Assembly: GCA_000431795.1 (NCBI GenBank)
Contig: FR887359.1
Location: 9,551 to 73,550 of the forward strand
Direction of reading: 5' to 3'
Source: Clostridium sp. CAG:302
GTDB taxonomy: Bacteria > Bacillota_I > Bacilli_A > RF39 > UBA660
Length of the DNA: 64,000 nucleotides
Position numbers and translations under genes: made by a program. Under the pieces are notes generated by a model. It ran no database searches and was not told the origin of the DNA. It was given only the letters and a program-made list of their open reading frames with translations. The stretch's first letter is position 1. Each line of letters opens with the position of its first letter. Below, one piece after another: positions 1-25,092 of this stretch.

Positions 1-569
1 TTTTAGACTTTGACAATGTTGATAGCACAAACTTGAATAGACAATATTTATATAATGATTGCGATATTTCCAAAAGCAAAGTAGATGTTGTTGAACAAAA
101 AATTAAATTAAAAAATCCATCGGCTATAGTAAAATCATATAATATGTTTGTAAAAAATTATGATGAAATAGAGAACATAATAAAAAAAGAGCATATTGAT
201 ATTGTTATATGTGCTGCTGATACACCTTTTCTTGATATAAGAATTTTCATATTGGAAGCCTGCATTTCTTGCAAAGTACCATGTATTTTTGGTGGTGTGA
301 GTATTTTAACAGGTCAATATGGGCCAACATTTTTAAATTCTAAAAAAATGAGTTTATATTTAAAGAAGTTAAATAAAATAAAGAAAGAAGTTAAATGCAA
401 TAATACTAATAAATCCTCTTTTGGGCCTACTAACACTATAATTTCTGCTTATATGTCTATTGATATTATAATGACCTTATTAAATATACGAAAAAGTATT
501 AATTCATTGAACAAAATTAAAACATTAAATTTTATTACAAGGAAGGATTATGAAGAAGAAAGATTTTGA
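1..569 (+). CDS. ThiF/MoeB/MccB-family (E1-like) adenylyltransferase, C-terminal part; 5' end lies outside the window
   Basis: The frame is open to the window edge. Translation from nt 3 reads LDFDNVDSTNLNRQ, the E1-like D-x-D-x-V-x-x-S/T-N-L-N-R-Q motif, then ICAADTPF and GPTNTIISAYMSIDIIM. The TTG at 33 in the ORF track is internal. Confidence 0.75.
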   Translation, partial: LDFDNVDSTNLNRQYLYNDCDISKSKVDVVEQKIKLKNPSAIVKSYNMFVKNYDEIENIIKKEHIDIVICAADTPFLDIRIFILEACISCKVPCIFGGVSILTGQYGPTFLNSKKMSLYLKKLNKIKKEVKCNNTNKSSFGPTNTIISAYMSIDIIMTLLNIRKSINSLNKIKTLNFITRKDYEEERF

Positions 570-2172
570 TCCAAATAATTATAATAAATTAAATAATTTA
601 AGAAAAAAAATAATTAAAGATACTTCTAGTTTTATTAATATGGACAATAAAAAAATTATAGAAATAGGTTCAGGAAATGGTAATTTTTCTAAACTATTAA
701 GTAAGAAATTCAATAGTTCTTATATATATGGTATAGATATAGTTTCACAATATATTGATTTTTCAAAAAAAAATAATAATAATTATAATATCCAATTTGA
801 AAAGAAAAATATATATGATGTTGATTCTACATATGATATAGCATTTATGATATTTTCTATGGCAGAGTTACTTAAGAATGATACGTTAGAAAATATATTA
901 AATAAGATTAAAGATAAAATATTATGTAATGGTTATCTTATACTTGTTGATGAGTTTTTTGATGATTATTCTGAAGAGTGTGATTTAATTGGAATAGAGG
1001 TTATGCAGAAATTAGGGTATAAGTACTCAAATTATGATGAGTTGAAAAACATTATAGATAATACTAATTTTGAAATTATATTTACAAAGGTATATGATAA
1101 TAAGCAAAAAATGACAAACATATTTGGCTCAAAACTGCAAATATTCTATGAAAATAAATTAAATGAATTTGATGATACTAAAAAATATGATTCTGAGCTA
1201 ATTTGGGAAACTATGAAAGATAAAATAATTAAAGCAGATGGTATGAGAACTTATAACAAATCAAGACTAATTATATTAAAAAAGACTAATAATATTATTG
1301 ATAAACTATGTACTCTTAAAAGTGATTTGTGTCTATATTATTCTTTATCCACTATTAAAGATAATATTAAATACTATAAAGATTTAAAAATAGATAATTT
1401 AGAATATGCTTTTCCAGTAAAAACATTTCCTAATGATAAAATATTAAATTTATTTTATATTAATAATTTTTACTTTGATGTATCTAATAAAAATGAAGAA
1501 AAACTAATAAGAAAGTATAAAACTTTAAACTTTTATTCAGATCCTACAATGAGTATAAGAAATAATAGTTATATCAGATTATATATTCATAATATAGGAT
1601 CGCATTTTGGAATGAGTTATGATGGTAAATCATATGAAATATATCACATACATATTTCATTAAATAAAGATAGAAAAATTCAGAAAAAGATGCTTGAAGT
1701 AATAGCCTCTCTTAATTATAATAAGACAAAATATCTAGATATCGGTGGAAGTTATGATAATTTAAGTTATTTGGAATTTAATTTATTTTTGAGTAAAATA
1801 AGAAATGTAGTACCAAAAAAAGTTAAGATCTTAATTGAGGCTGGCAGTATGTGGTTTAAAGATAGTGGCTTTTTAGTATGCAAAGTTAAAAGTATTAATA
1901 GTATTGGAAAAATTAAATTTGCTTATGTTAATGCCTCCAGAGAACTACATACAAAATGGTCTATTCCAAAATATATTAATATTAATTATGGCGATAATGA
2001 TTACATAATATGTGGTGCAACCTGTTATGAAAAAGATTTGTTCTTTCATGCATATAACACTAGTATTAAGTATGATGATACAATTTATTTCAGTAATATA
2101 GAACCATATTCTTATTCTTTTAATACTGATTTTAACGGTATCAATAAAGCGGAAGTGATTATAGATGAATAA
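550..2172 (+). CDS. Fusion protein: N-terminal class I SAM-dependent methyltransferase-fold domain plus C-terminal PLP-dependent Orn/DAP/Arg-type decarboxylase domain
   Basis: The N-terminus has IIEIGSGNGNFS (SAM motif I) and ILVDEF. The C-terminal half has YAFPVKTFPN (PLP-lysine context like AxKAN), HNIGSHFG, LDIGGSY, EAGSMWF and CGATCYEKD. The start overlaps the upstream stop. Confidence 0.65.
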   Translation: MKKKDFDPNNYNKLNNLRKKIIKDTSSFINMDNKKIIEIGSGNGNFSKLLSKKFNSSYIYGIDIVSQYIDFSKKNNNNYNIQFEKKNIYDVDSTYDIAFMIFSMAELLKNDTLENILNKIKDKILCNGYLILVDEFFDDYSEECDLIGIEVMQKLGYKYSNYDELKNIIDNTNFEIIFTKVYDNKQKMTNIFGSKLQIFYENKLNEFDDTKKYDSELIWETMKDKIIKADGMRTYNKSRLIILKKTNNIIDKLCTLKSDLCLYYSLSTIKDNIKYYKDLKIDNLEYAFPVKTFPNDKILNLFYINNFYFDVSNKNEEKLIRKYKTLNFYSDPTMSIRNNSYIRLYIHNIGSHFGMSYDGKSYEIYHIHISLNKDRKIQKKMLEVIASLNYNKTKYLDIGGSYDNLSYLEFNLFLSKIRNVVPKKVKILIEAGSMWFKDSGFLVCKVKSINSIGKIKFAYVNASRELHTKWSIPKYININYGDNDYIICGATCYEKDLFFHAYNTSIKYDDTIYFSNIEPYSYSFNTDFNGINKAEVIIDE

Positions 2173-3265
2173 AAAAGAAAAAGTTTTTTTTGAAAAGTTA
2201 TTTTGTATGAGCATTCATTCAAAGGCAGAAATAAATTCTTTACTTAGGGTTAAGTATAGAATTGATCTACCATTAACTAATAAGAATAATGACTTTTTTA
2301 TTAAAGAAAATTATACTTTTAATTATAATTATCAAAGATTCGATTCACAATTAAATTATAATGATTATGTAAGTAATTTTTATAATATAAATGATATTCA
2401 TTCAAAGACAATATTTACTAATTGTGGTATGTCAAGTATCTTTTGTGTTTTATATGCCATAAGTAGAATTGGTAATTATAAAGTCGTTTATGAAAAAGAT
2501 ACATATTTTGAAACTCAAAAAATAATCAAATCTTTAAATTTGAATCATGGTAAGAAAATTATATACTATGACACTATCAGTGATAATTTTAATTTTGATA
2601 GCAATGTAAATAACAAAATAATAATAATCGATACAACTTGTTATCATTCATACGATTTTAAAGAATTTATTACAAAATTATTAAATAACAATAATTTTGT
2701 AATAGCGGTTAGAAGTCATGTGAAACTAGATATGCTTGGTTTAGAATATGCCTTTTTAGGTTCTACAACTTTCTTTCTTTCTGATAAAACTAATAAAACA
2801 CAACTTAATAATTATAAGAAAATTATATATAATACAATTAATATTGGCGGTAATATTGGTGTAATTGCTTCTGAAAAATGCATATTTCCATTATTAAATA
2901 ATATTGATTTTATAAAGCTAAATGATTATAGAATTAGAAGAATAAAATTTAATAATAAATATTTTTATGAAAAAAATAATGAAAATAAATGTTTAACATT
3001 GCATAATCATAATTTATTTTTAACACTAATTACTAATACAAATAATATTCAAGAATTGATAGATATTGTTAAAAGTATTGCAATTAATTCAAAAGGATTA
3101 TGTTATTACTCCTCTTCATTTGGTTTTGATTATATAGCTTTGGATACTTATTTCGACTTTTGTAGTAAAAAAAATACAATTAGAATTTCTATAGGTGATG
3201 TTAGTAAAAAAGTGTTAAATGATTTTATTGATTATTTTAAGGAAAATTTAAATGGTAAAATTTAG
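2165..3265 (+). CDS. PLP-dependent enzyme resembling the Cys/Met-metabolism family (cystathionine gamma-synthase/beta-lyase-like)
   Basis: Motifs are FTNCGMSSIF (SGMAAI-like), IIIIDTT and VRSHVKLDMLG (S-x-x-K Schiff-base context). It overlaps the upstream gene by 8 nt. Confidence 0.45.
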   Translation: MNKKEKVFFEKLFCMSIHSKAEINSLLRVKYRIDLPLTNKNNDFFIKENYTFNYNYQRFDSQLNYNDYVSNFYNINDIHSKTIFTNCGMSSIFCVLYAISRIGNYKVVYEKDTYFETQKIIKSLNLNHGKKIIYYDTISDNFNFDSNVNNKIIIIDTTCYHSYDFKEFITKLLNNNNFVIAVRSHVKLDMLGLEYAFLGSTTFFLSDKTNKTQLNNYKKIIYNTINIGGNIGVIASEKCIFPLLNNIDFIKLNDYRIRRIKFNNKYFYEKNNENKCLTLHNHNLFLTLITNTNNIQELIDIVKSIAINSKGLCYYSSSFGFDYIALDTYFDFCSKKNTIRISIGDVSKKVLNDFIDYFKENLNGKI

Positions 3266-4466
3266 TATTGATTACATTAATTCGGCTAGTTTCTTTAAAA
3301 AACTAGATTATTCTAATAAAATTATTTTAAGCTCTACTGCAGATACACTTTTTATATATGATAGAGAAAAAAATAAATATATTTTAAATGCTTGTGAATC
3401 GTTTAAGGTATATAATAATAAATATTTATTTAATTTGAGAAAAGATATCTATTATTATGATGGCACAAGAGTGACTGCTCATGATTATGTAAAAGCAATA
3501 ATAGAACAGCAACAACTGATACCAGAATTCTTTATAAATGTTTTATCAATAAACAGTACAGATACTACAATTTTTATAGTTCTTAAGAAAAAAGATAAAA
3601 AATTTATAAATAAATTGTCTTTTTACTTATTTTCTCCACATTCTAAAAAAACTTGTGGAAGATATTATATTAGTGAAATTTCAAATAAAAAAATTGTATT
3701 ATTACCAAATGAATTTTATAGAGATAGAGCTGTAGATAAATTGGAATTTATTTTATGTGAAAACATAATAGAGGATAACATGTATTTTAGTAAAAGAATA
3801 ACTGATATAAATAATAATACATTTTTAAAGTTAAATAACACTAATTTTAAAAATGAAAAAAGTGGTATAATTTTTAGCATTGAAGTTAGTACAAAATTTT
3901 CTATAAATGAAAGAAATCATATTATAAATAGTATTGATAAAAATCAAATCATTAATCAATTAGGAAATTCATATTTCGTGAAAAATGATTTTTTCTTTGA
4001 TGAAATATCAAAATATAAGTATCACAATGTAAAAAAATTAAAAAAAAAGAAGGAATTAAGATTCTTTTACAATAAATACTATCCTAACTATGAAATTTCT
4101 TTGCTTATAAAAAAAGAATTGGAAAAGAAAAATTATGATGTTAAGTTATTTGAAATAGATTATAATGATTTTAAAAAACTTACTGACTTTGATTTGAAAT
4201 TGGTTTTAAACTATTTTGAATATATTGACAATTTGTATTTTTATAATAGCAATTACTTTAAATATGTTATGAATAAAAATCATAAATACAATTTTTTGTT
4301 GAATAAAAAAATTTTACTTAAAACTATCAATTTTTTATTTAAAAAGAAATGGATTAAAGAGCCACTAATCTCATTTTATAGTAGCTATAATTCAAATGAA
4401 TATACTAAATATTTTTCGTATTTAGAATGCAATTATAATAAGATTAAAGATAAAAATAAAAATTAA
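3252..4466 (+). CDS. Family-5 solute-binding-protein-like protein without a signal peptide or lipobox
   Basis: FNLRKDIYYYDGTRVTAHDYVKAI matches the SBP family 5 (OppA/DppA) signature region. There is no N-terminal hydrophobic segment. It overlaps the upstream gene by 14 nt. Confidence 0.5.
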   Translation: MVKFSIDYINSASFFKKLDYSNKIILSSTADTLFIYDREKNKYILNACESFKVYNNKYLFNLRKDIYYYDGTRVTAHDYVKAIIEQQQLIPEFFINVLSINSTDTTIFIVLKKKDKKFINKLSFYLFSPHSKKTCGRYYISEISNKKIVLLPNEFYRDRAVDKLEFILCENIIEDNMYFSKRITDINNNTFLKLNNTNFKNEKSGIIFSIEVSTKFSINERNHIINSIDKNQIINQLGNSYFVKNDFFFDEISKYKYHNVKKLKKKKELRFFYNKYYPNYEISLLIKKELEKKNYDVKLFEIDYNDFKKLTDFDLKLVLNYFEYIDNLYFYNSNYFKYVMNKNHKYNFLLNKKILLKTINFLFKKKWIKEPLISFYSSYNSNEYTKYFSYLECNYNKIKDKNKN

Positions 4467-4786: not shown

Positions 4787-6586
4787 ATGTATACTGGTAT
4801 TTTCTTTTCAATAGAAGCACTTTTCTACTTAGGATTATTGTTATTAGTTTATTTTAAGAAAAAAGTATTTAAAAGTAGAGAAAATAAAATTTATTCAATT
4901 TTAGTTATTGTAACATTTATAGAACTTTTAACTGAAATAATTTTGGATATTGTTGGCCCATTATATCAAGCAATACCAAAAATTAGCTATTCAGTAGCAA
5001 AAATATATTGTATATTTATTATATTATGGAATTGTTTACTTTGTACCTATGTTTTTCTAGTAGCCCTAAAAATGAAAAACAAAGAACGTTATTCTAGTAG
5101 TACAAAAACATTACTAATAAGTTTTGGAATAGCTTTATCTCTTGCTTCTGCATTACTTCCAATTAATTTCTACTATTCCGGAAAAATAGCATATACATAT
5201 GGTCCAAGCGTTAATGTAGTATATATATCCGCTATTGTATATTCTTTGATAGGAGTATTTTGCTTACTTTGGAATGCTAAAGAATGGAAAGATAAAAGAT
5301 TTATACCAGTAATTATTCTTGTTACTCTAGGTAGTCTTTGCTCATACATTCAATATATGAATCCTGGTTTATTACTTGCAACAGCGGTTCATTCCTTTAT
5401 AACATTCATAATGTACTTTACCATTGAAAACCCTGATGTAAAAATGATTGAGGAATATCATAAAGCCAAAGAAATTGCCGATAACGCTAATGAAGATAAA
5501 ACAATGTTTTTATATAATATGACTAACGATATAAGAGCAATTACTAAAGATATAAATAATGATGCCAATAATGCTATACTTGAATTAGATAGTAAAAAAA
5601 TAGACAAAGACTATATGAGTGAATGCTTAAGAGGTATCAAAGAAAATACCGCTAGATTTACAACAATGACTAATGAAATATTAGATGTATCTAGTATAGA
5701 TAATGCAAATATCAAAGTATATGATGAGAAGTATAGTATAAAACTATTATTAAGAAGATTAGTAACACTATATAATGATAAATGCAAAGAAAAGAATTTA
5801 ACTTTCAGAAGTGATATTGATAGTACTTTACCAGAGTATCTATATGGTGATAGTCTCGGACTTAAAAATGTACTAACTAGTATTCTAGATAATAGTGTTA
5901 AATATACAAGTAATGGTTATGTAGAGTTAAATGTAAGTACCATTATAAAAAATAATATAGTAAGACTAATAATAACCATAGAGGATTCCGGTATTGGTAT
6001 ATCTCCTGATAAATTAGATACCATCTTTTATAAAAATAGGGAAGAAATAGATGGAAGTAATATTAAGAATAATTTATATACTGCTAAAAAACTAATTACT
6101 TTAATGGGAGGTACTATAATTGCCAGTAGTAATTATAATGAAGGTACTACAATGAAAATAGTTCTAGACCAGAAACTAGGAGAACAATATGATGAAAAAC
6201 TAAATAAGTATGAAAATACCTATGATAAAAAAAGAATCCTACTTGTAGATGATAATATTTCTACTAATAAGATAATAAGTAAATTACTTAAAGATACCAA
6301 TATAGAATTAGATTATGTAGGTTTAGGTAAAGAAGCCCTAGATAAAATTAGAAGTAAAGAAAAATATGACTTAATTCTATTAGATGAAGTAATGGATCCA
6401 CTAGATGGAAAGACAGTTATGAAAAAATTTAAAGATATCAGAGATTTCAATACCAAAGTCATATTACTAACTAGAAATAACGAATACGAATATAACGAAG
6501 AATACCTAAAGTATGGCTTTGCTGGTTATCTCTTAAAACCAATAAATAAAGATAAATTATTAGAAATAATAGATAAGTACCTATAA
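4787..6586 (+). CDS. Hybrid sensor histidine-kinase-like protein: multi-pass membrane N-terminus, DHp-like region, HATPase domain and C-terminal receiver domain
   Basis: About 6 hydrophobic helices sit in the first 210 aa. The H-box-like segment is FLYNMTNDIRAI, the N box is ILDNSVKYT and the G1 box is IEDSGIGIS. The receiver domain has LLVDDN, LILLDEVMDPLDG and YLLKPI. An RBS AAGGAG lies upstream. Confidence 0.8.
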   Translation: MYTGIFFSIEALFYLGLLLLVYFKKKVFKSRENKIYSILVIVTFIELLTEIILDIVGPLYQAIPKISYSVAKIYCIFIILWNCLLCTYVFLVALKMKNKERYSSSTKTLLISFGIALSLASALLPINFYYSGKIAYTYGPSVNVVYISAIVYSLIGVFCLLWNAKEWKDKRFIPVIILVTLGSLCSYIQYMNPGLLLATAVHSFITFIMYFTIENPDVKMIEEYHKAKEIADNANEDKTMFLYNMTNDIRAITKDINNDANNAILELDSKKIDKDYMSECLRGIKENTARFTTMTNEILDVSSIDNANIKVYDEKYSIKLLLRRLVTLYNDKCKEKNLTFRSDIDSTLPEYLYGDSLGLKNVLTSILDNSVKYTSNGYVELNVSTIIKNNIVRLIITIEDSGIGISPDKLDTIFYKNREEIDGSNIKNNLYTAKKLITLMGGTIIASSNYNEGTTMKIVLDQKLGEQYDEKLNKYENTYDKKRILLVDDNISTNKIISKLLKDTNIELDYVGLGKEALDKIRSKEKYDLILLDEVMDPLDGKTVMKKFKDIRDFNTKVILLTRNNEYEYNEEYLKYGFAGYLLKPINKDKLLEIIDKYL

Positions 6587-7073: not shown

Positions 7074-7424
7074 TTTATCTGGGTAAATGCTGCATATAAT
7101 TATGTAGAGGAAAGTCCATGCTCGCACTATCTGTGATGATAGTAGTGTTTGTGCTTAGGGAAAAAATAACCTAAGGCAGGTAACTGACGGCGTTCGTTTT
7201 ATCTAAGGGAAACTATGATAAAATGGATATAAAGTGCCACAGAAACGAGTCTATGAAGAAATTCGTAGAATGAAACGAGGTAAACCCCGCAAGCGAGAAA
7301 CCCAAAATATGGTAGGGGAATCTTCCGAGGAAAATAAGAATCCAAAGAAGAATGACATTATGTCATAGATAAATATTTACCGCCTAGCAATAGGTACAGA
7401 ACATGGCTTATAAGATTTATTATT
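7069..7424 (+). ncRNA. rnpB: RNase P RNA, type B (Firmicute type)
   Basis: Universal blocks are GAGGAAAGTCCATGCTCGCAC, AAAGTGCCACAGAAACG, GGTAAACCCCGCAAGCGAGAAACCCAAA, GGTAGGGGAA and ACAGAACATGGCTTA. P1 pairs 7069-7080 with 7413-7424. The ends are good to about 10 nt. Confidence 0.93.
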
Positions 7425-11415: not shown

Positions 11416-11888
11416 ATATTTATCTCCTTATAATCATTATAAAAATAAATTTCTGGATAATTAGTATTCAAATTATTCATATTAGCCTCTACAAACCTAG
11501 TGGCAATTTTTTTATCTTCTTCAGTAATATTTTCACCATAAAAATAAACTTTAAAATTGATTTTTTTATCTATTCTAACTTTATGATGTATCTCACCATT
11601 TCTAATAGTAAAGAAAGGTTCAACAAATGATATGCTTCTTTCAATAATCTTTTTAACTTTACTACTATAAGTACCATAAGTAAATTTACTAATAATAATA
11701 AGTTCATCACTTTCTAAAATTTTTTTACCATTATAAGTAATATTATCCTTATGTACACATTCCAGTGGTTTTCTAACCCAGCAAGAAAAACATCCTATAC
11801 AGCTTTTTTCAGCATCACTAACTAAAACATCAGTATCATTTAACTTCAAAAAAGAGGTATCCTCTAAATCATGTATTATTGTTCTCAT
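11412..11888 (-). CDS. Flavodoxin-like / iron-sulfur flavoprotein-like protein with a Cys cluster
   Basis: It has CIGCFSCWVRKPLEC followed by ESDELIIISKFTYGTYSS. The ATGA overlap with the downstream gene indicates coupling. No clear RBS was found. Confidence 0.45.
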   Translation of the reverse strand: MRTIIHDLEDTSFLKLNDTDVLVSDAEKSCIGCFSCWVRKPLECVHKDNITYNGKKILESDELIIISKFTYGTYSSKVKKIIERSISFVEPFFTIRNGEIHHKVRIDKKINFKVYFYGENITEEDKKIATRFVEANMNNLNTNYPEIYFYNDYKEINI

Positions 11889-12020
11889 AATAAAAAATAT
11901 GCTAAATTAAAATATTTAGCACTATAATACTAGTAACTATTATAAAACCCACTTCAAAATTACTCCGAAATGAGTAAAATGAGTGGAAAATTGGAAGTAA
12001 AAATGGAAAAATCAAAGTAA

Positions 12021-12047
12021 AAAAGTCTTATTTTATAAGACTTTTGC
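12021..12047 (-). terminator. Terminator downstream of tmRNA (palindromic, potentially bidirectional)
   Basis: The AAAAGTCTTAT/ATAAGACTTTT hairpin is flanked by A and T runs. Confidence 0.7.
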
Positions 12048-12055
12048 ATTCTTAA

Positions 12056-12414
12056 TGGTGGAGCTGAGGGGAATCGAACCCCTGTCCGCAAATACAGTAG
12101 CTTAACCTTCTACAAGATTAGTAAGTTATTAAAATTCATAAGCAAGTAGATAACTTACAATCATAATTGCTTACTAGTTTATGTTTATTCGTTATGAAGT
12201 CTAAACAAAAATCATAATATAGTCTGCTTTATAAGTCCTATCTAATTCTCACAGACAAAGAATTAGTAGAACCTGTCGCTACCTATAGGTTAGGCATAAG
12301 CAACAGCGTTTGTATAGCTGTTTCCAGTTATATTTAATTTCACTCTTGTAACGTAAGAGATACTCGTCTTGCTAATTAAGCCCAAATATTTTCGTCGAAA
12401 CCAAAGACAGCCCC
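12056..12414 (-). ncRNA. ssrA: tmRNA (SsrA)
   Basis: The reverse complement begins GGGGCTGTCTTTGGTTTCGACG and ends GGACAGGGGTTCGATTCCCCTCAGCTCCACCA. The internal tag frame ends ...NSYTNAVAYA with TAA at 12290-12292. Confidence 0.95.
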
Positions 12415-12533
12415 AAATACATATATAATTTTACCAAACAAATGTTTCTTTGTCAATTTTTTATTCAAATTTTATTGTAATATTACAAATTTTAATGTAT
12501 AATTACTATAGAATAGAAATAGGGAGCGTTAGT

Positions 12534-13196
12534 ATGGATTATAACAATGTAGAAAATAAAAATTATTTTGGAGTAAGACATTACAATGTTAAAATAGTAA
12601 AAGAAAAAATAAAACCATTAAAATTCATTTCCAGTGTTATATCATATGCTATTTTTATATGGTTATTATTAATTGGATTAACACTATTAGTTTATATTGC
12701 AGACATTAAAATTCGTGCAGCTAAAGGAGATAATACTCCACCTAAATATAATGCTTATGTAGTATTAACAGGTTCAATGATACCAGAAATAATGCCTAAT
12801 GATGTAGTAATAACAAAGAAGAGAGATGCTAAAGAATTACAAGCAGGTGATATTATAACATTTGTATCATCCGATCCAAGACTTTCAAATATAATAGTAA
12901 CTCATAGAATAAAACAAGTATTTACTAATTCAAATACTGGTAAACGTGAATTTCAAACTAAGGGAGATAATAATAATGTTGAAGATTTTGTTTTAGCACA
13001 AGAGCAAAATGTAATAGGAGAAGTAATCTATAAAATACCAAAACTAGGTTACGTACAAGCACTATTAGCTTCAAAAGGAGGATTAATAATAATAGTCCTA
13101 ATACCATGTTTAGCAATATTATCTTATGATATAGTAAAATTATGTAAGAGAATAGCCACTAAAAAGAAAAGTAAATCTACCGTTGTAAGAAGGTGA
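12534..13196 (+). CDS. sipW: Signal peptidase I, SipW-like (eukaryal/archaeal-type S26B)
   Basis: It has VLTGSMIPEIMPNDVV (catalytic Ser), THRI (His) and TKGDNNNVED, with N- and C-terminal TM segments. The start is set at ATG 12534 behind RBS AGGGAG. Confidence 0.8.
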   Translation: MDYNNVENKNYFGVRHYNVKIVKEKIKPLKFISSVISYAIFIWLLLIGLTLLVYIADIKIRAAKGDNTPPKYNAYVVLTGSMIPEIMPNDVVITKKRDAKELQAGDIITFVSSDPRLSNIIVTHRIKQVFTNSNTGKREFQTKGDNNNVEDFVLAQEQNVIGEVIYKIPKLGYVQALLASKGGLIIIVLIPCLAILSYDIVKLCKRIATKKKSKSTVVRR

Positions 13197-18946: not shown

Positions 18947-19022
18947 TGGTGGGGCGTTAGGGATTCGAACCCTAGACCCACTGATTAAGAGTCAGTTGCT
19001 CTACCAACTGAGCTAACGCCCC
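18947..19022 (-). tRNA. tRNA-Lys (anticodon CUU)
   Basis: The reverse complement is GGGGCGTTAGCTCAGTTGGTAGAGCAACTGACTCTTAATCAGTGGGTCTAGGGTTCGAATCCCTAACGCCCCACCA. Confidence 0.9.
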
Positions 19023-19500: not shown

Positions 19501-22500
19501 ATGAAAAAAATCGGAATTAAAGATAAAAGTTTTTGGCTAATCTTAAGTTTAAGTATAATAACTTTAATAATTCTAACAGTAGGAGTAATCTTTCTAACAA
19601 GAAAATCCTCTAAAGAATTTTATAGTGCAGGATATATTATAAATAGTACTGCCACAAAAAGCGACAAATATTACTTTAACGATAATACAGTCTATAAAGA
19701 AAATGTATTTAATGAATATACATTTAAAGATGTAGACAACAAAGAAGTAGCCACTAGCAAAGAAAACTTCATTCACTATTTAGATGAATCATTATCATTT
19801 ATGAAAAATGGAGTAATTCTAGATTTAGATAACTTTAATCAAAAACTAGTACCATACTATAATGTTACAGATAAAGTAATCCTAAAATATAGTAATGGCG
19901 GTTATATAGTAGAAACAGCAGATAAAACTTTAATATTTGGAAATCTACTAGGTAGAATAACAGATAATAAATATATAGTTATTGGTAACGATATAAAAAT
20001 AAAACTAGCGGGTAACGAAGAACCAGTAAAAGGAAAATACTTTGAACTATTATTTGTTGAAGATGGTATTGTCAAAGTAGAAAACAATGAAGGAAGTTAT
20101 CAAACCACTACCGAAGGAACAACAATCTTTGCTGGAGATAAAATAAAAATAGAATTAGGTAGCAAAAAAGTCTTCTATGACGAAGAAGAAAAACTAACTC
20201 TTGATGAAATGACTATTGATGGTAACGAAAACATTAATTTAGACACCTCAAAAGTAAAAGATAATAAAGATGGAAATGGTTCAGGAGATGGTACAGACAG
20301 CAATACACCTAATGATAACAATAACCCTAATAATAATAATCCAGGAAATAATACCGACAATCCTAGTGATAATACTGGTAATGGCACAGATGGTAAAGAT
20401 AACAACACCACTGAAATAAGAAAAGAAGTATCAGTAGACTTAGTAAAAGCACTATTAGATATCAACAGTCTAAATGCCACAATTCAAGTTATTGACACAG
20501 CAAATCAAATAAAAGGAAACTTAATTTTAACATTATATGATGTAGATAATGCTGAAACAGTATATACAAAAATACTACTAACATCATCAGATCTTCAAGA
20601 AGTAGCAGTTACCTCACTATCACCAAATACTAACTATTATATGTCAATAAAAGATTCAGATAACTATGAATACTTATCAAGAAACTTTAGAACAGATAAC
20701 TTAGAATTAAGTTTAAAAAGAGAAATGGTAACTACAAGCTCAGTTACATATTCCGTAGATTTTAGCAGTGATGAAAACATAAAATCCGCTAAAGTAACTC
20801 TAAAAGATAGTGAGAATAACATAATAAATAACCACACCTTCATAAATGGTGAAGATGAAGAATTTACATTTAGTGGTCTAACAAAAAACACTTCATACAA
20901 AGTAATTCTAGATGAAGTACTATTCAAAAATACCAATTACTCTAAGGTATACACAATAAACACATCGGTTAAAACATTAAAAGCAAAACCATCTCTTGGA
21001 GAAGTAAATGTAAAATCAAATGAAGAAAGCAAAACATTTGAACTATCAATGGAAAAGCCAACAGATGAAGATGAAAGCATCTCAAATTATATTTATAAAA
21101 TATACGATTTAGATACTATAACTGAAGAAAATGTAGATACCTTAACCCCAGTATACACATTTAGTACAGTAAATTTAAAAAATGAAATATTAAAATTAGG
21201 TGAAAACAATTTAGCCTCAAACAAAAATTATGTTTATAAAGTAACAGTAAGATACTATGATAATTATAAAGAAAATGAAATAGATTCAGTATTAAGTAGT
21301 CCCTTCATTATCGCTGGTTTACCTTCAGTAACTTTCGAAGAGAAAGAAGTAGACTTTAACTCAATGCATTTATTACTAACATTAAAAGATGAAGGCTGCA
21401 CAATACCGGGAAGAAGCTGCTACCAAGGAGATCCTTCTGATAAAAGTGATATTTACATAACTTATAAAGGAGCCAATGACAAAGAAAGTAAATATATAAA
21501 CAACATTACATTCGATCCAGAAACATTAACTTATGATTTAAGAGTATCAGGATTAACAGAAAATAAAGATTATAAGTTTGAAGTATGGGGAAATTATGAT
21601 TTATACAATGGCAAAGGATTACAAGTAAATAAACCATTAGGATCTGCAATAATAACTACTGCCGGTATAGAAAACCTTACTATGTCAGAATGGACTCTAA
21701 ATAACTATTCTAACGAATTACCAATATCAGTAAATACAAAATTAACTGTAACCAAACCAAGTAGTACAATAATCGATAAACTAGACTCCTTCAAAATAAA
21801 TCTTTATAAAGGAAGCGAAGTTAAAAAAGAAAATCTTTTAGGTAGTTATCCTGTTGAGGGAAACAACAACATCAAATCAAATTATTACAATAAATCATTC
21901 AATATTAATTCAAGTCAGTTTGGTATAACAGATATAAATAATCTAAGAGAAGTATCAGGTGGAAAATTAAATAGATATTACACTATAGAAGTAGCAGATG
22001 CTTATGATGCTGATAAGACAAATCAGTTCAAAATTCAAGATAACATATTTATATATGAAATACCAGCAATACTTCTACTTGAAGATGAAGTGTCTTCTCC
22101 TGAAGTAATTGTTGAAGAAATAACTAAAAAGCAAGCCCAATCTGGAGAATATGGTGATTTTAACGAATTAGGAATAAACAAAAATCTTTCATCAAATACC
22201 GTAGTAGGTTATAAAGTAACCGCTAACTTCGATAAGAAGAAAGTAGAATCATATTTTCAAGGAGATAATCCAATCAAAGAGTTAAACTTCTATGCCAATA
22301 TGGATGGTAAAGTAATAGAAAAGAAAACCATAAACTTCGCTGAAGAAGAAAATTATACTATATATTTCTTCCTAAAAGATGGAACAGATTACAACACTGT
22401 AGATACAGAATTAAGAAGAGGTAATAACTATACCTTCTCAATAGATTTAAGTTTAGATACAAATAACGATAAAGAAATAGATACTAATTATCCAAGTAAA

Positions 22501-25092
22501 AAACCAACTAGTGAAACCATAACAAGTATTAAAGAAGAACCAAAAATAAAAATGTATATTGATAGTAGTACTTCAAACTCTATAACCTACAAGTATATAG
22601 TAGTAGATTATGATAATGCCTTGGTAAAAGAAGAAGATAAATATCTAATACATTACACAGTAGGAGAAGATTCCACTGAAGAATATACTACTGAAATATC
22701 AAATACCGCTAGTATGGAAACTTTTACACTATCAAATCTAACTAATGAAACCATCTATAATATATATTATAATAAAGCACTAAATAAAAAAGAAAAACCA
22801 AGTGCTATCAGCTTTAAATACTACTTTGATGGCTACCATAATGCCAGTAAATATGGACTTAGTTACATACTAAAATATGATGAATTTGATAATGAATTAA
22901 CCCTAAGATTAAATAATAATGATTTCTTAGATAGAGTTTCAGCATATCTAGTAACCTTAACTTCAGGTTCACTAAAATATGAGGAAGTAATAACAACCCC
23001 ATTAGAATGTGGTACAGAAGAAGAACCAAGTAAATGCATAAAAATAGATTATGCTAATATAAAAGACTTTAAAGGAAAAGATATAACAGTAAAACTAGAG
23101 GCCTTCTATGACACAGGTTATGTAGGCTTTGGTAGCAAATCATTACTTGGAGATTACTTTACTTCTCGTGGACTAATAGATGATAAAAATGCAAGTAATA
23201 TAGGATTTATATTACAAGAAATAGGTAATACCAAAGGAAAATACTATTACATATATAAAAATTCAAATAATAAAGTAGAGTCAATAATAAGTGATACACC
23301 AAATGGAATATTTGGAATAACACCAACTATATATACTGAAAGTCATAAACAATCAAGTTTATCTACTACTAATGTTGTAGATATCATAAATAAAAGTTTC
23401 ATAAATTATGGTGAAGTATCCCTAAATTCTGATATAGATGTTTTAACAAATGGTATTAAACTAAAGAGTCATAACATATTCATAGCCCCTAAAGTATTAG
23501 ACAAAACCGAAATACAAACAACAAATAATAAATTTAAGTTTAACAGTATCATTCCAAAAGTTGATACAAAATTAACACCGCTAATAAATGGAGCAATAAT
23601 TAATATAAACTTATCAATAGACACTGACACTTTAGAAACAGACTATGTAAAAATAGACGGAAAATATATGTTTTATATAGATATTTATACTAAAGATGAA
23701 GAAGGTGAACTAGTGTTCGCAAAATCAGTATCAACGGATTATGAACATTTAACAAATATTTCTTTCGCAGGCCTAAATCCAGATAGCACATACTATTATA
23801 AGATCTCCGCATATATGAATGGAAGAGATGAAAAAACACCATTATTTGCTTTAGGTAAAAACGGCTATATACAATATTTAAATACTCTAAAGACATTAGG
23901 AAAAGATGATATTTTCAAAAATATTGAGTACTCACACAAATCAACAAAAGGTGAAACAGTATATAGTGAAAGAACATTAAATATAACAACAGGTCTAAAA
24001 TCAAAAGAAAACTTCAATGTAAGATATGAATTATATGATCCTGAAGGCAACTTGGAAAAATGGGGCGGAACAGTATTAAACAAAGATATAACAAACAAAA
24101 ATAATGCAATATTTACTGCCGATATTACAGGTAATGACTTCGTTTTTGGAGGAGATTATCATAGATTAGTAATAACTGCAGTAACAACAGATGACGAACC
24201 TAAAGAACTAGAATTATACAATGACACACTAAAAGCAACAACATTATTTGGCGAACTAAAAGAACCAAACATAGTTCTATACCAAAGTACCGGAATAGAC
24301 AAAATATCCGGAAATTATGATTATTACATTGACTATAATATAAATATCGAAGATACAGATAGAGTAATAAAAGATGGAAAATTCTATGCGGAACTTAAAT
24401 ATTCTCCACAAGAAAAAGTCTGTCCAAATGAAGAAGATTGTAAATTAGAAATAGATTTATATAACTTAAAATGCAATTCAAATGGTGCTAATAGTAAAAT
24501 AGCCTCATGTACCATAATTGAAAACAAAGTAAATAATACATTTACACTAAAAGTTAGATATGCATCTTTAAAACCTAATACTGAATACTATATTTCCACA
24601 AGTGCTAATATATATCGTAATAATGTTTCATTAGACACCAAAGAAGAAGTAGTAAAATTTGGAGCATTTCAATATACAAAAAGTGAACTTGGTTTTTCAA
24701 TAGGAGATCCATATTTAACAGCAGTAGGAAATAATTTAATATTAAAGTTTAAAGGTGCAACAAATAATATTAAAGAATCAATAAAAGGTATCAAATATAA
24801 TCTTTATGTCAACAGACAATCGGAAATAAAATTAGATTCAAATGAAAAAGGATTAATACCAAGTATGACATCAAATTTAGTAAAAGATGCTATAAATTAC
24901 GGGGACATTATATATAAAGTAGATAAAGATAATTACCCATATATTGAGATACCAATACCTGACGGAGTTAAAATAGGAACAAACAACGATTTATATGTAA
25001 GATATTACTATGAAGATAATGGTGAACTACTAATGCTGTCAATAAACGGGACTACGACTCATAGGTATCAAGTTGGTACTGGTGATAACTAA
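19501..25092 (+). CDS. Giant (1863 aa) N-terminally membrane-anchored surface protein built from many FN3/Ig-like modules
   Basis: It has an N-terminal TM (FWLILSLSIITLIILTVGVIFL) and an N/D/G/P-rich linker (nt ~20260-20410). FN3-style strand motifs recur: LSPNTNYYMSIKD, GLTKNTSYKVILD, LASNKNYVYKVTVRY, GLTENKDYKFEVWGNYD, LTNETIYNIYYN, GLNPDSTYYYKISAY and LKPNTEYYISTSA. Confidence 0.7.
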   Translation: MKKIGIKDKSFWLILSLSIITLIILTVGVIFLTRKSSKEFYSAGYIINSTATKSDKYYFNDNTVYKENVFNEYTFKDVDNKEVATSKENFIHYLDESLSFMKNGVILDLDNFNQKLVPYYNVTDKVILKYSNGGYIVETADKTLIFGNLLGRITDNKYIVIGNDIKIKLAGNEEPVKGKYFELLFVEDGIVKVENNEGSYQTTTEGTTIFAGDKIKIELGSKKVFYDEEEKLTLDEMTIDGNENINLDTSKVKDNKDGNGSGDGTDSNTPNDNNNPNNNNPGNNTDNPSDNTGNGTDGKDNNTTEIRKEVSVDLVKALLDINSLNATIQVIDTANQIKGNLILTLYDVDNAETVYTKILLTSSDLQEVAVTSLSPNTNYYMSIKDSDNYEYLSRNFRTDNLELSLKREMVTTSSVTYSVDFSSDENIKSAKVTLKDSENNIINNHTFINGEDEEFTFSGLTKNTSYKVILDEVLFKNTNYSKVYTINTSVKTLKAKPSLGEVNVKSNEESKTFELSMEKPTDEDESISNYIYKIYDLDTITEENVDTLTPVYTFSTVNLKNEILKLGENNLASNKNYVYKVTVRYYDNYKENEIDSVLSSPFIIAGLPSVTFEEKEVDFNSMHLLLTLKDEGCTIPGRSCYQGDPSDKSDIYITYKGANDKESKYINNITFDPETLTYDLRVSGLTENKDYKFEVWGNYDLYNGKGLQVNKPLGSAIITTAGIENLTMSEWTLNNYSNELPISVNTKLTVTKPSSTIIDKLDSFKINLYKGSEVKKENLLGSYPVEGNNNIKSNYYNKSFNINSSQFGITDINNLREVSGGKLNRYYTIEVADAYDADKTNQFKIQDNIFIYEIPAILLLEDEVSSPEVIVEEITKKQAQSGEYGDFNELGINKNLSSNTVVGYKVTANFDKKKVESYFQGDNPIKELNFYANMDGKVIEKKTINFAEEENYTIYFFLKDGTDYNTVDTELRRGNNYTFSIDLSLDTNNDKEIDTNYPSKKPTSETITSIKEEPKIKMYIDSSTSNSITYKYIVVDYDNALVKEEDKYLIHYTVGEDSTEEYTTEISNTASMETFTLSNLTNETIYNIYYNKALNKKEKPSAISFKYYFDGYHNASKYGLSYILKYDEFDNELTLRLNNNDFLDRVSAYLVTLTSGSLKYEEVITTPLECGTEEEPSKCIKIDYANIKDFKGKDITVKLEAFYDTGYVGFGSKSLLGDYFTSRGLIDDKNASNIGFILQEIGNTKGKYYYIYKNSNNKVESIISDTPNGIFGITPTIYTESHKQSSLSTTNVVDIINKSFINYGEVSLNSDIDVLTNGIKLKSHNIFIAPKVLDKTEIQTTNNKFKFNSIIPKVDTKLTPLINGAIININLSIDTDTLETDYVKIDGKYMFYIDIYTKDEEGELVFAKSVSTDYEHLTNISFAGLNPDSTYYYKISAYMNGRDEKTPLFALGKNGYIQYLNTLKTLGKDDIFKNIEYSHKSTKGETVYSERTLNITTGLKSKENFNVRYELYDPEGNLEKWGGTVLNKDITNKNNAIFTADITGNDFVFGGDYHRLVITAVTTDDEPKELELYNDTLKATTLFGELKEPNIVLYQSTGIDKISGNYDYYIDYNINIEDTDRVIKDGKFYAELKYSPQEKVCPNEEDCKLEIDLYNLKCNSNGANSKIASCTIIENKVNNTFTLKVRYASLKPNTEYYISTSANIYRNNVSLDTKEEVVKFGAFQYTKSELGFSIGDPYLTAVGNNLILKFKGATNNIKESIKGIKYNLYVNRQSEIKLDSNEKGLIPSMTSNLVKDAINYGDIIYKVDKDNYPYIEIPIPDGVKIGTNNDLYVRYYYEDNGELLMLSINGTTTHRYQVGTGDN

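Follow-up and report, generated by a model that had tools for sequence, protein, structure and literature searches.

According to reviews and mining studies from 2024 and 2025, the ribosomally made peptides with posttranslational modifications (RiPPs) of the ThiF type are microcin C, pantocin A, the GRC thiolactone, and enterofaecin, to which a 2025 Organic Letters paper adds an indolylamide. All characterized ThiF homologues of RiPP pathways adenylate a peptide carboxylate, which is then captured by a nucleophile (PMC12250964), and leader-dependent activation by a ThiF-like enzyme is also described in PMC12150305. For microcin C, the chemistry of MccB needs a C-terminal Asn, for the succinimide and the N-P bond (PMC4010828). 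MccD, which has the S-adenosylmethionine (SAM) enzyme fold, and MccE, a pyridoxal 5'-phosphate (PLP) decarboxylase, turn an aminocarboxypropyl into an aminopropyl group (PMC10491745), and MccE is a member of the alanine-racemase-fold superfamily (PMC7857480). Here, we analyzed positions 1 to 4466 of a 64,000-nucleotide stretch of Clostridium sp. CAG:302 (GenBank assembly GCA_000431795.1, contig FR887359.1, positions 9,551 to 73,550 of the forward strand), called the window below. This region probably holds the last four genes of an uncharacterized, conserved ThiF-dependent RiPP operon of six to seven genes that is distinct from microcin C and whose chemistry, apparently a remodeling of the terminal peptide residue, we infer.

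The computation established the operon architecture, a conserved precursor peptide, intact catalytic residues in four enzymes, a cytoplasmic OppA-like protein, and a linkage to ABC-F genes in relatives. With high confidence, the cluster is a ThiF-dependent RiPP cluster other than that of microcin C. A mining study of lactic acid bacteria from 2024 mentions some ThiF clusters without characterizing them (PMC11256085). No published cluster with dikinase-like, ThiF, decarboxylase, PLP enzyme, solute-binding protein (SBP), and ABC-F genes was found in the literature searched, which left most subscription journals outside its coverage.

Organization of the operon

The earlier note on this DNA had placed four overlapping genes at positions 1 to 4466, and had expected the precursor gene and the N-terminal part of the first protein to lie upstream of the window. 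The coordinates were correct, with overlaps of 20, 8, and 14 nucleotides (nt), and the genes and domains are as follows:

1 to 569, plus strand: 3' part of the ThiF gene, 189 codons of a protein of 315 amino acids (aa); the first 126 codons, among them those of the N-terminal extension, lie upstream of the window
550-2172, plus strand: methyltransferase-decarboxylase fusion gene (gene 2), 540 aa, overlapping the ThiF gene by 20 nt
550 to 1284, plus strand: class I SAM-methyltransferase domain, fusion residues 1-245
1285 to 2172, plus strand: alanine-racemase-fold (Orn/DAP/Arg-type) PLP decarboxylase domain, fusion residues ~246-540
2165-3265, plus strand: gene 3, fold-type-I PLP enzyme of the Cys/Met-metabolism (gamma) family, 366 aa, 8-nt overlap
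3252-4466, plus strand: gene 4, cytoplasmic OppA/DppA-like protein (SBP_bac_5 fold), 404 aa, 14-nt overlap

The three internal starts (550, 2165, and 3252) are each preceded by a Shine-Dalgarno-like purine run, and no intrinsic terminator was found after gene 4.

In the contig collection, 1664 indexed blocks contain the exact fusion protein, and six long human-gut contigs carrying it were fetched. The gut metagenome contigs L001 to L005 differ from the window at 1 to 5 of the 4466 positions, L001 at only 1. An alignment of L001 with window positions 1-600 showed 100% identity across these 600 bases, and window base 1 corresponds to L001 position 9452. Both upstream elements were found on this contig, where the operon begins as follows:

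L001 7039-7067: sigma-70-like promoter, TTTACA-17-TG-GATAAT
L001 7086-7178: precursor gene, 30 codons, MTKILKKIFRLNRVDDIDAELAKMSMSQRS, with a GGAGG Shine-Dalgarno site ahead
L001 7175-7205: attenuator-like hairpin, 8-bp stem-loop and T-run
L001 7222-9054: phosphoenolpyruvate (PEP)-synthase-like phosphotransferase (the dikinase-like enzyme), 610 aa
L001 9073-10020: complete ThiF gene, 315 aa

A stem-loop with a T-run after the structural gene is a common attenuator-like arrangement in RiPP operons.

A conserved precursor peptide

Nine precursors, one each from nine clusters, were aligned by eye. Their leaders share the motif M-x-K-[ILF]-[ILF]-K and the acidic motif [D/N]-I-D-x-E-L, and the C-terminus is almost invariant, [Q/H]-R-[S/C/T]. 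The last residue is Ser in six of the nine, Cys in two, and Thr in one; the short open reading frame (ORF) ending in Asn that the earlier note had suggested looking for was not encountered among them (0 of 9). The sequences, as C-terminal parts unless stated, are the following:

L001: ...DDIDAELAKMSMSQRS
L021: ...ENIDEELAKMSMSQRS
L010: ...ENIDKELVQMSMTQRS
L009: ...DNIDEELETLSMTQRC
L012: ...EDIDAELASCSMSQRS
L015: ...KNIDAELASCAMSQRS
L023: ...KNDLELLAICETHRS
L016: ...LDNIEKKLLESCEAQRT
L018 (precursor): MENKEVKTVEIESTTAAELDAVDVEILECSMTQRC

A strong Shine-Dalgarno site precedes the precursor ORF in L001, L009, L010, L012/L013, and L018. Because this small ORF is kept while the enzymes of the clusters share only 30 to 55% identity, its presence by chance is very unlikely. 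An NCBIfam scan with the 30-aa peptide returned no family.

Enzymes and the OppA-like protein

The first gene had been read from the window as the C-terminal part of a ThiF/MccB-family enzyme, and this was confirmed. Pfam ThiF matched the window fragment with an E value of 2.1e-27 and the full-length L001 protein with 2.5e-42. When the family profile was compared with all PDB sequences, Escherichia coli MccB came first (1.8e-27; residues 44-298 against MccB 54-321), with ubiquitin E1s, PaaA (6.6e-18), ThiF, and MoeB all behind; MccB from the E. coli mcc operon scored 2.5e-27. GLGGxG, NxNRQ (R140), K153, and D200 are invariant in the family, the ATP and Mg residues are intact, and a short conserved precursor gene lies in the same operon. 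The ThiF domain is preceded by an N-terminal extension of ~90 residues. In the alignment with MccB, the CxxC motif of the latter was not conserved, and in a tblastn search of plasmids with ThiF, mcc plasmids were not among the matches listed.

The phosphotransferase combines PPDK_N and PEP-utilizers domains (ATP-grasp and phospho-His swivel). Over residues 54-368, its profile matches PEP synthase and rifampicin phosphotransferase (2e-51), and the phospho-histidine motif GSxLSH316AAI is invariant in the family. Residues ~370-610, a domain of ~250 aa, matched nothing.

Gene 2 joins a methyltransferase fold to a PLP decarboxylase, as had been proposed. Only 23 relatives of the fusion protein were found among 5.8 billion clustered proteins, and tblastn against PLSDB plasmids gave one marginal match. 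In the N-terminal half, residues ~25-180 match six methyltransferase Pfam families, and a profile built from 18 relatives finds class I SAM methyltransferases in the PDB. The AlphaFold model of this domain has a predicted local distance difference test score (pLDDT) of 94. In the Foldseek search, Plasmodium phosphoethanolamine N-methyltransferases ranked first (2e-14, ~20% identity), ahead of BioC, cyclopropane synthases, and plant alkaloid N-methyltransferases. The structures closest to the domain methylate a primary amine, and judging from the model it looks like an amine N-methyltransferase.

The C-terminal half of the fusion protein matches Pfam Orn_DAP_Arg_deC (PF00278) with 23.0 bits (E 9.5e-5), exactly at the cut-off, and PF02784 is recorded in relatives. 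The profile from 18 relatives retrieves carboxynorspermidine decarboxylase (1.4e-9), diaminopimelate decarboxylase (3e-7), and ornithine decarboxylase (1.7e-5) from the PDB. All motifs of fold-type-III (alanine-racemase-fold) decarboxylases are invariant, namely, FPVK291 with the PLP lysine, DIGGxY (G399G400xY402), and E430xG432S433, as are C488G489, E494xD496, and F528N529G530. The defining features of these enzymes (PLP-Lys, GGG-type phosphate loop, EPGR-type motif, catalytic Cys, and C-terminal beta-domain) are present. L017/L018 and L023 have no methyltransferase domain, and L021 encodes it as an ORF of its own, whereas the decarboxylase is always present; stand-alone decarboxylase homologues of ~338 aa hold the same position in related clusters. 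Therefore, the methyltransferase fold cannot be an obligatory donor step on which the decarboxylase relies for its substrate.

For gene 3, the reading as a Cys/Met-metabolism-type PLP enzyme was upheld. The protein alone matched nothing in Pfam, and several of its 42 homologues carry PF01053 (Cys_Met_Meta_PP). The invariant motifs are GMSSI (G88M89), YFET (Y114xE116T117), DTT (D156T157T158), and RSHxK187LD (R183S184H185xK187L188D189), which we read as the phosphate loop, stacking Tyr, pyridine-N Asp, and PLP Lys of the cystathionine-synthase/lyase family. In the gamma family, the loop reads SGM(A/S)A, the Asp is that of DNT, and the Lys that of SxTK. With the AlphaFold model (pLDDT 92), Foldseek found Met gamma-lyase, cystathionine gamma-synthase, O-acetylhomoserine sulfhydrylase, cystathionine beta-lyase, and Fub7 at a probability of 1.0. 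Since the matches by sequence were below threshold (E 0.28-0.66), the family is divergent. It occurs at 204 metagenome loci, mostly from soil, at 20 to 27% identity. Wherever the decarboxylase gene exists, gene 3 adjoins it (before it in L033/L041, after it elsewhere), and the two are adjacent and usually overlapping even in the otherwise unrelated clusters L020, L031, L033, L037-39, and L041. This constant adjacency fits consecutive action.

Gene 4 is a family-5 SBP homologue with no export signal, again in agreement with the earlier note. It matches Pfam SBP_bac_5 with 25 bits (E 1.2e-5), below the cut-off of 32.4, and its family profile finds OppA, DppE, PrgZ, MppA, and NikA with E values as low as 8.8e-11, in agreement with the cluster C binding-protein fold. 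Six homologues were inspected, and all are without a signal peptide, a lipobox, or an N-terminal hydrophobic segment; no ABC permease genes lie near gene 4, and the protein is ~100 aa shorter than typical SBP_bac_5 members. Judged from these features, it is predicted to be a cytoplasmic derivative and not a transport component.

Conservation of the cluster and linkage to ABC-F genes

The order precursor peptide, dikinase-like enzyme, ThiF, (methyltransferase-)decarboxylase, PLP enzyme, SBP-like protein recurs in at least 10 diverged clusters. The shared order was seen in L009, L010/11, L012-14, L015, L016 (where the contig end cuts the cluster), L017/18, L021, and L023, and partial clusters were found in L024, L025, and L030. 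The GC content of the genomes carrying the cluster ranges from 24 to 39%. A scan of GTDB species representatives yielded two distant loci only.

In most clusters (L009, L010, L012, L015, L017/18, and L023), an ABC-F gene lies directly 3' of the SBP-like gene and sometimes overlaps it. The ABC-F proteins of L009, L010, L012, and L018 score 441 to 480 bits against the NCBIfam ribosomal-protection model NF000355 (cut-off 380), and the same four stay below the thresholds set for EttA and Uup. In antibiotic clusters, an ABC-F of the antibiotic resistance (ARE) type usually shields the ribosome of the producer. In L021, the cluster is followed by hrcA-grpE-dnaK instead of an ABC-F gene.

A human-gut radical-SAM RiPP-like cluster (L019, 270-8116) comprises a 29-aa ORF, two radical-SAM enzymes, and, as the last gene, a gene 3 homologue. 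It also contains a Tet-type ribosomal-protection GTPase (504 bits, below the cut-off of 775), an M29 aminopeptidase, and a GNAT protein. Together, the ABC-F linkage and this Tet-type GTPase beside a gene 3 homologue point to a ribosome-directed product.

Several clusters have further neighbors. L009 has an S51 (PepE-like) peptidase gene just after the ABC-F gene, a GNAT gene upstream, and an amidase gene between the latter and the operon. In L010 (15590-17778), the ABC-F gene is followed by an APH(3')-family kinase (212 bits, cut-off 205), a 125-aa unknown protein, and tryptophanyl-tRNA synthetase (TrpRS), and spore-coat genes (CotJB and Mn-catalase type) lie nearby. The kinase, the 125-aa protein, and TrpRS could be extra resistance genes or mere neighbors; TrpRS and the APH(3') kinase were rejected as resistance genes of the pathway, as each occurs in one lineage only. 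L015 (CAZBKY010000004.1) has a GC content of 24% and a Firmicutes-type cluster, is labeled "uncultured Muribaculaceae," and is probably misbinned; a masked run of N interrupts its ThiF/fusion gene junction.

Comparison with other described systems

As in microcin C, a short ribosomal precursor precedes a ThiF/E1-like adenylyltransferase that is extended at the N-terminus, and a SAM-fold protein occurs with an alanine-racemase-fold PLP decarboxylase. However, the microcin C precursor ends in Asn and those of the window family in [Q/H]-R-[S/C/T]. Unlike in microcin C, the methyltransferase domain is optional and the MccB CxxC motif is absent. The PEP-synthase-like phosphotransferase, the gamma-family PLP enzyme, and the cytoplasmic OppA-like protein have no microcin C counterpart, and the ABC-F of the relatives stands where microcin C has its MFS, GNAT, and S66 functions.

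Activation of the peptide carboxylate by a ThiF-like enzyme is shared with pantocin A (PaaA), GRC (GrcB), the enterofaecin imide (EnfB), and the indolylamide (IndF). The pantocin precursor has 30 residues, as here. These four clusters pair ThiF with transporters, radical-SAM enzymes, or regulators, but are without a dikinase-like enzyme, a decarboxylase/PLP enzyme pair, an SBP-like protein, and an ABC-F.

The carboxy(nor)spermidine pathway and muraymycin Mur24 follow the same logic as that proposed here, in which a 3-amino-3-carboxypropyl group is placed on a nucleophile and then decarboxylated to aminopropyl. As Mur24 demonstrates, a PLP enzyme, not a methyltransferase-fold enzyme, can do the aminocarboxypropyl transfer (PMC10491745). 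Mur24 is ACC-synthase-like, whereas gene 3 belongs to the Cys/Met gamma family, and such a transfer by gene 3 is proposed by analogy. The acceptors also differ, being small-molecule amines in those pathways and, as proposed, a peptide side chain here.

Daptides likewise concentrate their chemistry on the C-terminal residue and carry an N,N-dimethylated amine in place of the peptide C-terminus. Daptide precursors end in Thr, and a PLP enzyme and an N-methyltransferase build the cationic terminus; the clusters also encode an oxidoreductase, an aminotransferase, and a separate RiPP recognition element (RRE) protein. They differ from the present cluster in being without ThiF, a dikinase-like enzyme, an alanine-racemase-fold decarboxylase, and an ABC-F.

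An unannotated cluster on an Enterococcus faecalis plasmid (L008, LR962333, 4303-10855) appears to be a simpler relative of the cluster in the window. It has a 25-aa candidate precursor, MNEEGKTTEMTFEDLFVEIISVERT, ending VERT, a ThiF 32% identical to that of the window family, a gene 3 homologue at 24%, an MFS transporter, and a PepF-like peptidase. The R-T ending of its candidate precursor falls within the R-[S/C/T] pattern of the window family. Between ThiF and the gene 3 homologue lies a 392-aa ORF with a short, weak SBP-like motif only and no Pfam or profile match, for which an SBP-like identity is suggested. L008 is without a dikinase-like gene, a decarboxylase, and an ABC-F, and unlike the window family it has the MFS transporter and the PepF-like peptidase. 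The divergent loci L020 and L041 encode ThiF together with a decarboxylase, a gamma-PLP enzyme, an SBP-like protein, and other enzymes; ThiF, the SBP-like protein, and the gene 3 homologue are shared with the window, and L020 adds radical-SAM and 2-oxoglutarate (2OG) oxygenase genes.

Proposed pathway

In the pathway that we propose, the leader would be held by the N-terminal extension of ThiF and/or by the OppA-like protein, and ThiF would adenylate the free C-terminal carboxylate, as its characterized RiPP homologues do. The dikinase-like enzyme would pass a phosphoryl group via its His to an oxygen near the C-terminus, either of a carbonyl or of a hydroxyl; in the latter case, the Ser/Thr residues of the conserved S-M-[S/T] stretch are candidates. 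The terminal residue is only Ser, Cys, or Thr, all of which have a beta-nucleophile, which suggests that its side chain attacks something. In the native cystathionine gamma-synthase reaction, the thiol of cysteine attacks a PLP-bound vinylglycine intermediate that comes from activated homoserine. Here, the terminal residue of the peptide, whose carboxylate is free, could stand in for cysteine, and its side chain may be the nucleophile to which the gamma-family PLP enzyme adds a 3-amino-3-carboxypropyl-type unit, with activated homoserine or SAM as the donor and an S- or O-(3-amino-3-carboxypropyl) adduct as the product. Carboxynorspermidine decarboxylase, the best solved match of the decarboxylase domain, takes an N-(3-amino-3-carboxypropyl) substrate, and the proposed adduct closely resembles carboxy(nor)spermidine. 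By analogy with that enzyme and with MccE, the decarboxylase domain would turn the adduct into an aminopropyl-type primary amine, and the methyltransferase domain, where present, would N-methylate the new amine. Speculatively, this amine might capture the ThiF adenylate to give a lactam. The product would act on the ribosome, as is suggested by the ARE-type ABC-F gene at the end of the operon in most relatives.

We hold this order of aminocarboxypropylation, decarboxylation, and N-methylation at the terminal side chain only tentatively. About equally tentative is the full picture, namely, a new RiPP class of prevalent human-gut Bacillota with a very low GC content, in which MccB-like and PEP-synthase-like enzymes jointly activate a 30-mer ending in Arg-Ser/Cys/Thr, the PLP enzyme pair adds an aminopropyl group that is N-methylated in some lineages, and the resulting cationic warhead blocks ribosomes while an ARE-type ABC-F provides self-protection.

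Several points weigh against the proposal. Every step of the mechanism is read from enzyme families, and no product was seen. The idea of a side-chain nucleophile is drawn from the Ser/Cys/Thr pattern and nothing else, and S-phosphorylation of Cys would be unusual. In the Foldseek comparison of gene 3, the template modeling (TM) score was only ~0.53. No ABC-F gene was found in the window operon, in the whole 64-kb window, or in the L021 cluster, and ABC-F proteins also have housekeeping and regulatory roles. The conserved clusters contain no exporter or leader peptidase, which sits uneasily with a secreted antibiotic. Finally, in the strain of L006, where positions 11616-12712 correspond to window 2165-3265, loss of 4 bp (CTTT) at gene 3 positions 605-608 shifts the frame and leaves ORFs of 231 and 88 aa; therefore, the pathway may be dispensable or decaying here.

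Alternative explanations

The absence of an exporter or a leader protease from every conserved cluster would also be explained if the modified peptide stayed in the cell or served as a signal, for example, as a quorum signal, a translation regulator linked to the ABC-F, or a scaffold from which an amino-acid-derived metabolite is cleaved. Other ThiF-type RiPPs, GRC and enterofaecin, are suspected signals (PMC12250964), and a chemistry concentrated on the last residue is what scaffold-peptide pathways have. Two genomes, those of the window and of L021, keep the cluster without an ABC-F gene. In the window, a hybrid histidine kinase/response regulator lies directly 3' of the operon, at the position of the relatives' ABC-F, but this gene is not conserved beside the other clusters. 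Moreover, the ABC-F proteins pass the ARE-type model and not those of EttA and Uup, and the gene 3 homologue beside a Tet-type protection GTPase points to a toxic product directed at the ribosome. An intracellular or signaling role is unlikely, yet a serious alternative.

A true microcin C-type pathway would yield a peptidyl-nucleotide whose phosphate is aminopropylated by MccD/MccE-like enzymes and which acts as a Trojan-horse inhibitor of an aminoacyl-tRNA synthetase. A microcin C-like module was the reading of the earlier note, which had assigned the activities of MccD and MccE to the fusion protein, and several observations speak for it. MccB is the closest solved relative of ThiF, and the SAM-fold domain with the alanine-racemase-fold decarboxylase parallels MccD and MccE (PMC10491745, PMC7857480). 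The S51 peptidase and GNAT genes near L009 and the GNAT gene in L020 resemble the microcin C immunity functions (PMC9239234), and a TrpRS gene lies near L010. For a direct comparison, the real mcc operon was taken from a plasmid of E. coli ATCC 25922, with mccA (MRTGNAN) recovered as a control, and the domain profiles were scored against it at a PDB-equivalent database size. The methyltransferase-domain profile gave an E value of 10 (8.7 bits) with MccD, and hhalign a probability of 54% over 78 columns, covering the SAM motif only. The decarboxylase-domain profile gave 1.5 with MccE, and hhalign 34% over 134 columns. The MccD structure, 5FCD (PMC10491745), was not among the 50 Foldseek matches listed for the methyltransferase model. 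Against PDB sequences, other methyltransferases and the carboxynorspermidine and diaminopimelate decarboxylases score far better (1e-9 to 1e-7). Thus, the folds proposed for the fusion protein stood; at the family level, the match with MccD failed, and that with MccE, a member of the same fold family, was not significant.

The rest of the cluster also departs from microcin C. No precursor ends in Asn, and with a terminal residue varying among Ser, Cys, and Thr, the aminoacyl-adenylate to be mimicked would vary too. The methyltransferase domain is dispensable in relatives of the window cluster, and the phosphotransferase, the PLP enzyme, and the SBP-like protein are left unexplained by the microcin C pathway. 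The exporter and microcin C-type immunity that had been anticipated did not appear, as neither the window cluster nor the conserved core has an MFS, GNAT, or S66 gene, and the immunity-like gene of the core is an ABC-F that acts on the ribosome, with no relation to an aminoacyl-tRNA synthetase. A microcin C-type pathway is therefore improbable. As far as sequence comparison goes, the likeness is real in fold and logic, not in family, and the earlier reading is partly supported, being right on the enzyme folds and the RiPP/ThiF logic and wrong on the family.

The cluster of the window genome could also be a nonfunctional remnant left after loss of the ABC-F gene. The absence of this gene from the operon and the 64-kb window, the 4-bp deletion in the PLP enzyme gene of one strain, and an amino acid composition that has drifted strongly toward A+T fit this explanation. 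However, the precursor and five protein genes are intact with every catalytic motif present, five independent gut metagenomes stay within 1 to 5 differences of the window, and the exact fusion protein recurs in the 1664 blocks mentioned above, and decay of the cluster in this lineage, though a live alternative, is quite improbable.

Still less credible is a nonribosomal small-molecule pathway (making a polyamine or a modified amino acid, for example, or transferring sulfur by way of a ThiS/MoaD-like carrier) with an incidental 30-codon ORF: ThiF, the carboxynorspermidine-decarboxylase-like domain, the Cys/Met PLP enzyme, and the methyltransferase could fit amino acid or polyamine metabolism, but the ORF keeps its position, length, leader motifs, and C-terminus though the enzymes are only 30 to 55% identical, it has a strong Shine-Dalgarno site in several clusters and, in L001, a promoter and an attenuator of its own, ThiF has an N-terminal extension and groups with MccB, and neither the window cluster nor the upstream region of L001 contains a MoaD/ThiS-like or Gly-Gly-ended carrier or thiamine or molybdopterin genes, a context that the earlier note had named as speaking against its microcin C-like reading.

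Composition and neighboring genes

The low GC content of the operon had led the earlier note to consider acquisition. The A+T and Asn/Lys/Ile richness is real: the GC content of 1-4466 is 0.207, against 0.275 elsewhere in the window, which ranks second lowest among 239 equally long segments, and N, K, I, Y, and F make up 45 to 55% of the residues of the operon proteins. However, the GC content at third codon positions (GC3) of the operon genes, 0.125 to 0.17, equals the values of the housekeeping genes recA, PFOR (pyruvate:ferredoxin oxidoreductase), and pgsA. The A+T excess therefore stems from amino acid composition and not from foreign codon usage, and recent acquisition on the grounds of low GC was rejected. 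The composition argues for weakly constrained proteins that have long resided in an A+T-rich lineage. The flanking genes differ from species to species, and transposase genes adjoin the cluster in L017/L018, which suggests mobility of the cluster.

Around the operon, the following features were recorded:

L001 3601-5070: protein with a weak HopA1-family match (E 0.0012), 489 aa, between PFOR and the precursor gene
L001 5180-6931: AMP-binding ligase, 583 aa, between PFOR and the precursor gene
4787-6586, plus strand: hybrid sensor, 599 aa, with an N-terminal multipass membrane region, HATPase_c, and a receiver domain, directly 3' of the operon
7075-7415, plus strand: RNase P RNA class B, 278 bits
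12056-12414, minus strand: tmRNA, 165 bits
18805-18878 and 18950-19022, minus strand: two tRNA genes
19501-25092, plus strand: very long ORF, 1863 aa

The AMP-binding ligase and the 489-aa protein were rejected as members of the operon, since they are missing from all other clusters and a promoter-like site intervenes before the precursor gene. The hybrid histidine kinase was likewise rejected as a cognate sensor because of its absence beside the other clusters. DivIVA and RecA genes adjoin the cluster. With the class B RNase P RNA, the tmRNA, and the spore-coat genes near the cluster of the relative L010, they point to a human-gut host of very low GC content that belongs to the Bacillota or to a Mollicutes-like lineage.

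Significance

ThiF-like enzymes are an emerging source of peptide chemistry, including phosphoramidates, thiolactones, imides, and indolylamides. The present cluster joins ThiF with a PEP-synthase-like phosphotransferase, a gamma-PLP enzyme/decarboxylase pair, and a cytoplasmic OppA-like protein, which have not previously been reported together in RiPP pathways. It also makes plain that ThiF, a methyltransferase fold, and a PLP decarboxylase are insufficient to call a cluster microcin C and that the C-terminus of the precursor needs checking. The operon-linked ARE-type ABC-F of the relatives predicts a ribosomal target, and such clusters may be a natural reservoir or origin of ABC-F resistance genes. 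Because the exact proteins occur in very many human-gut assemblies, the product could matter for competition or signaling in the gut.

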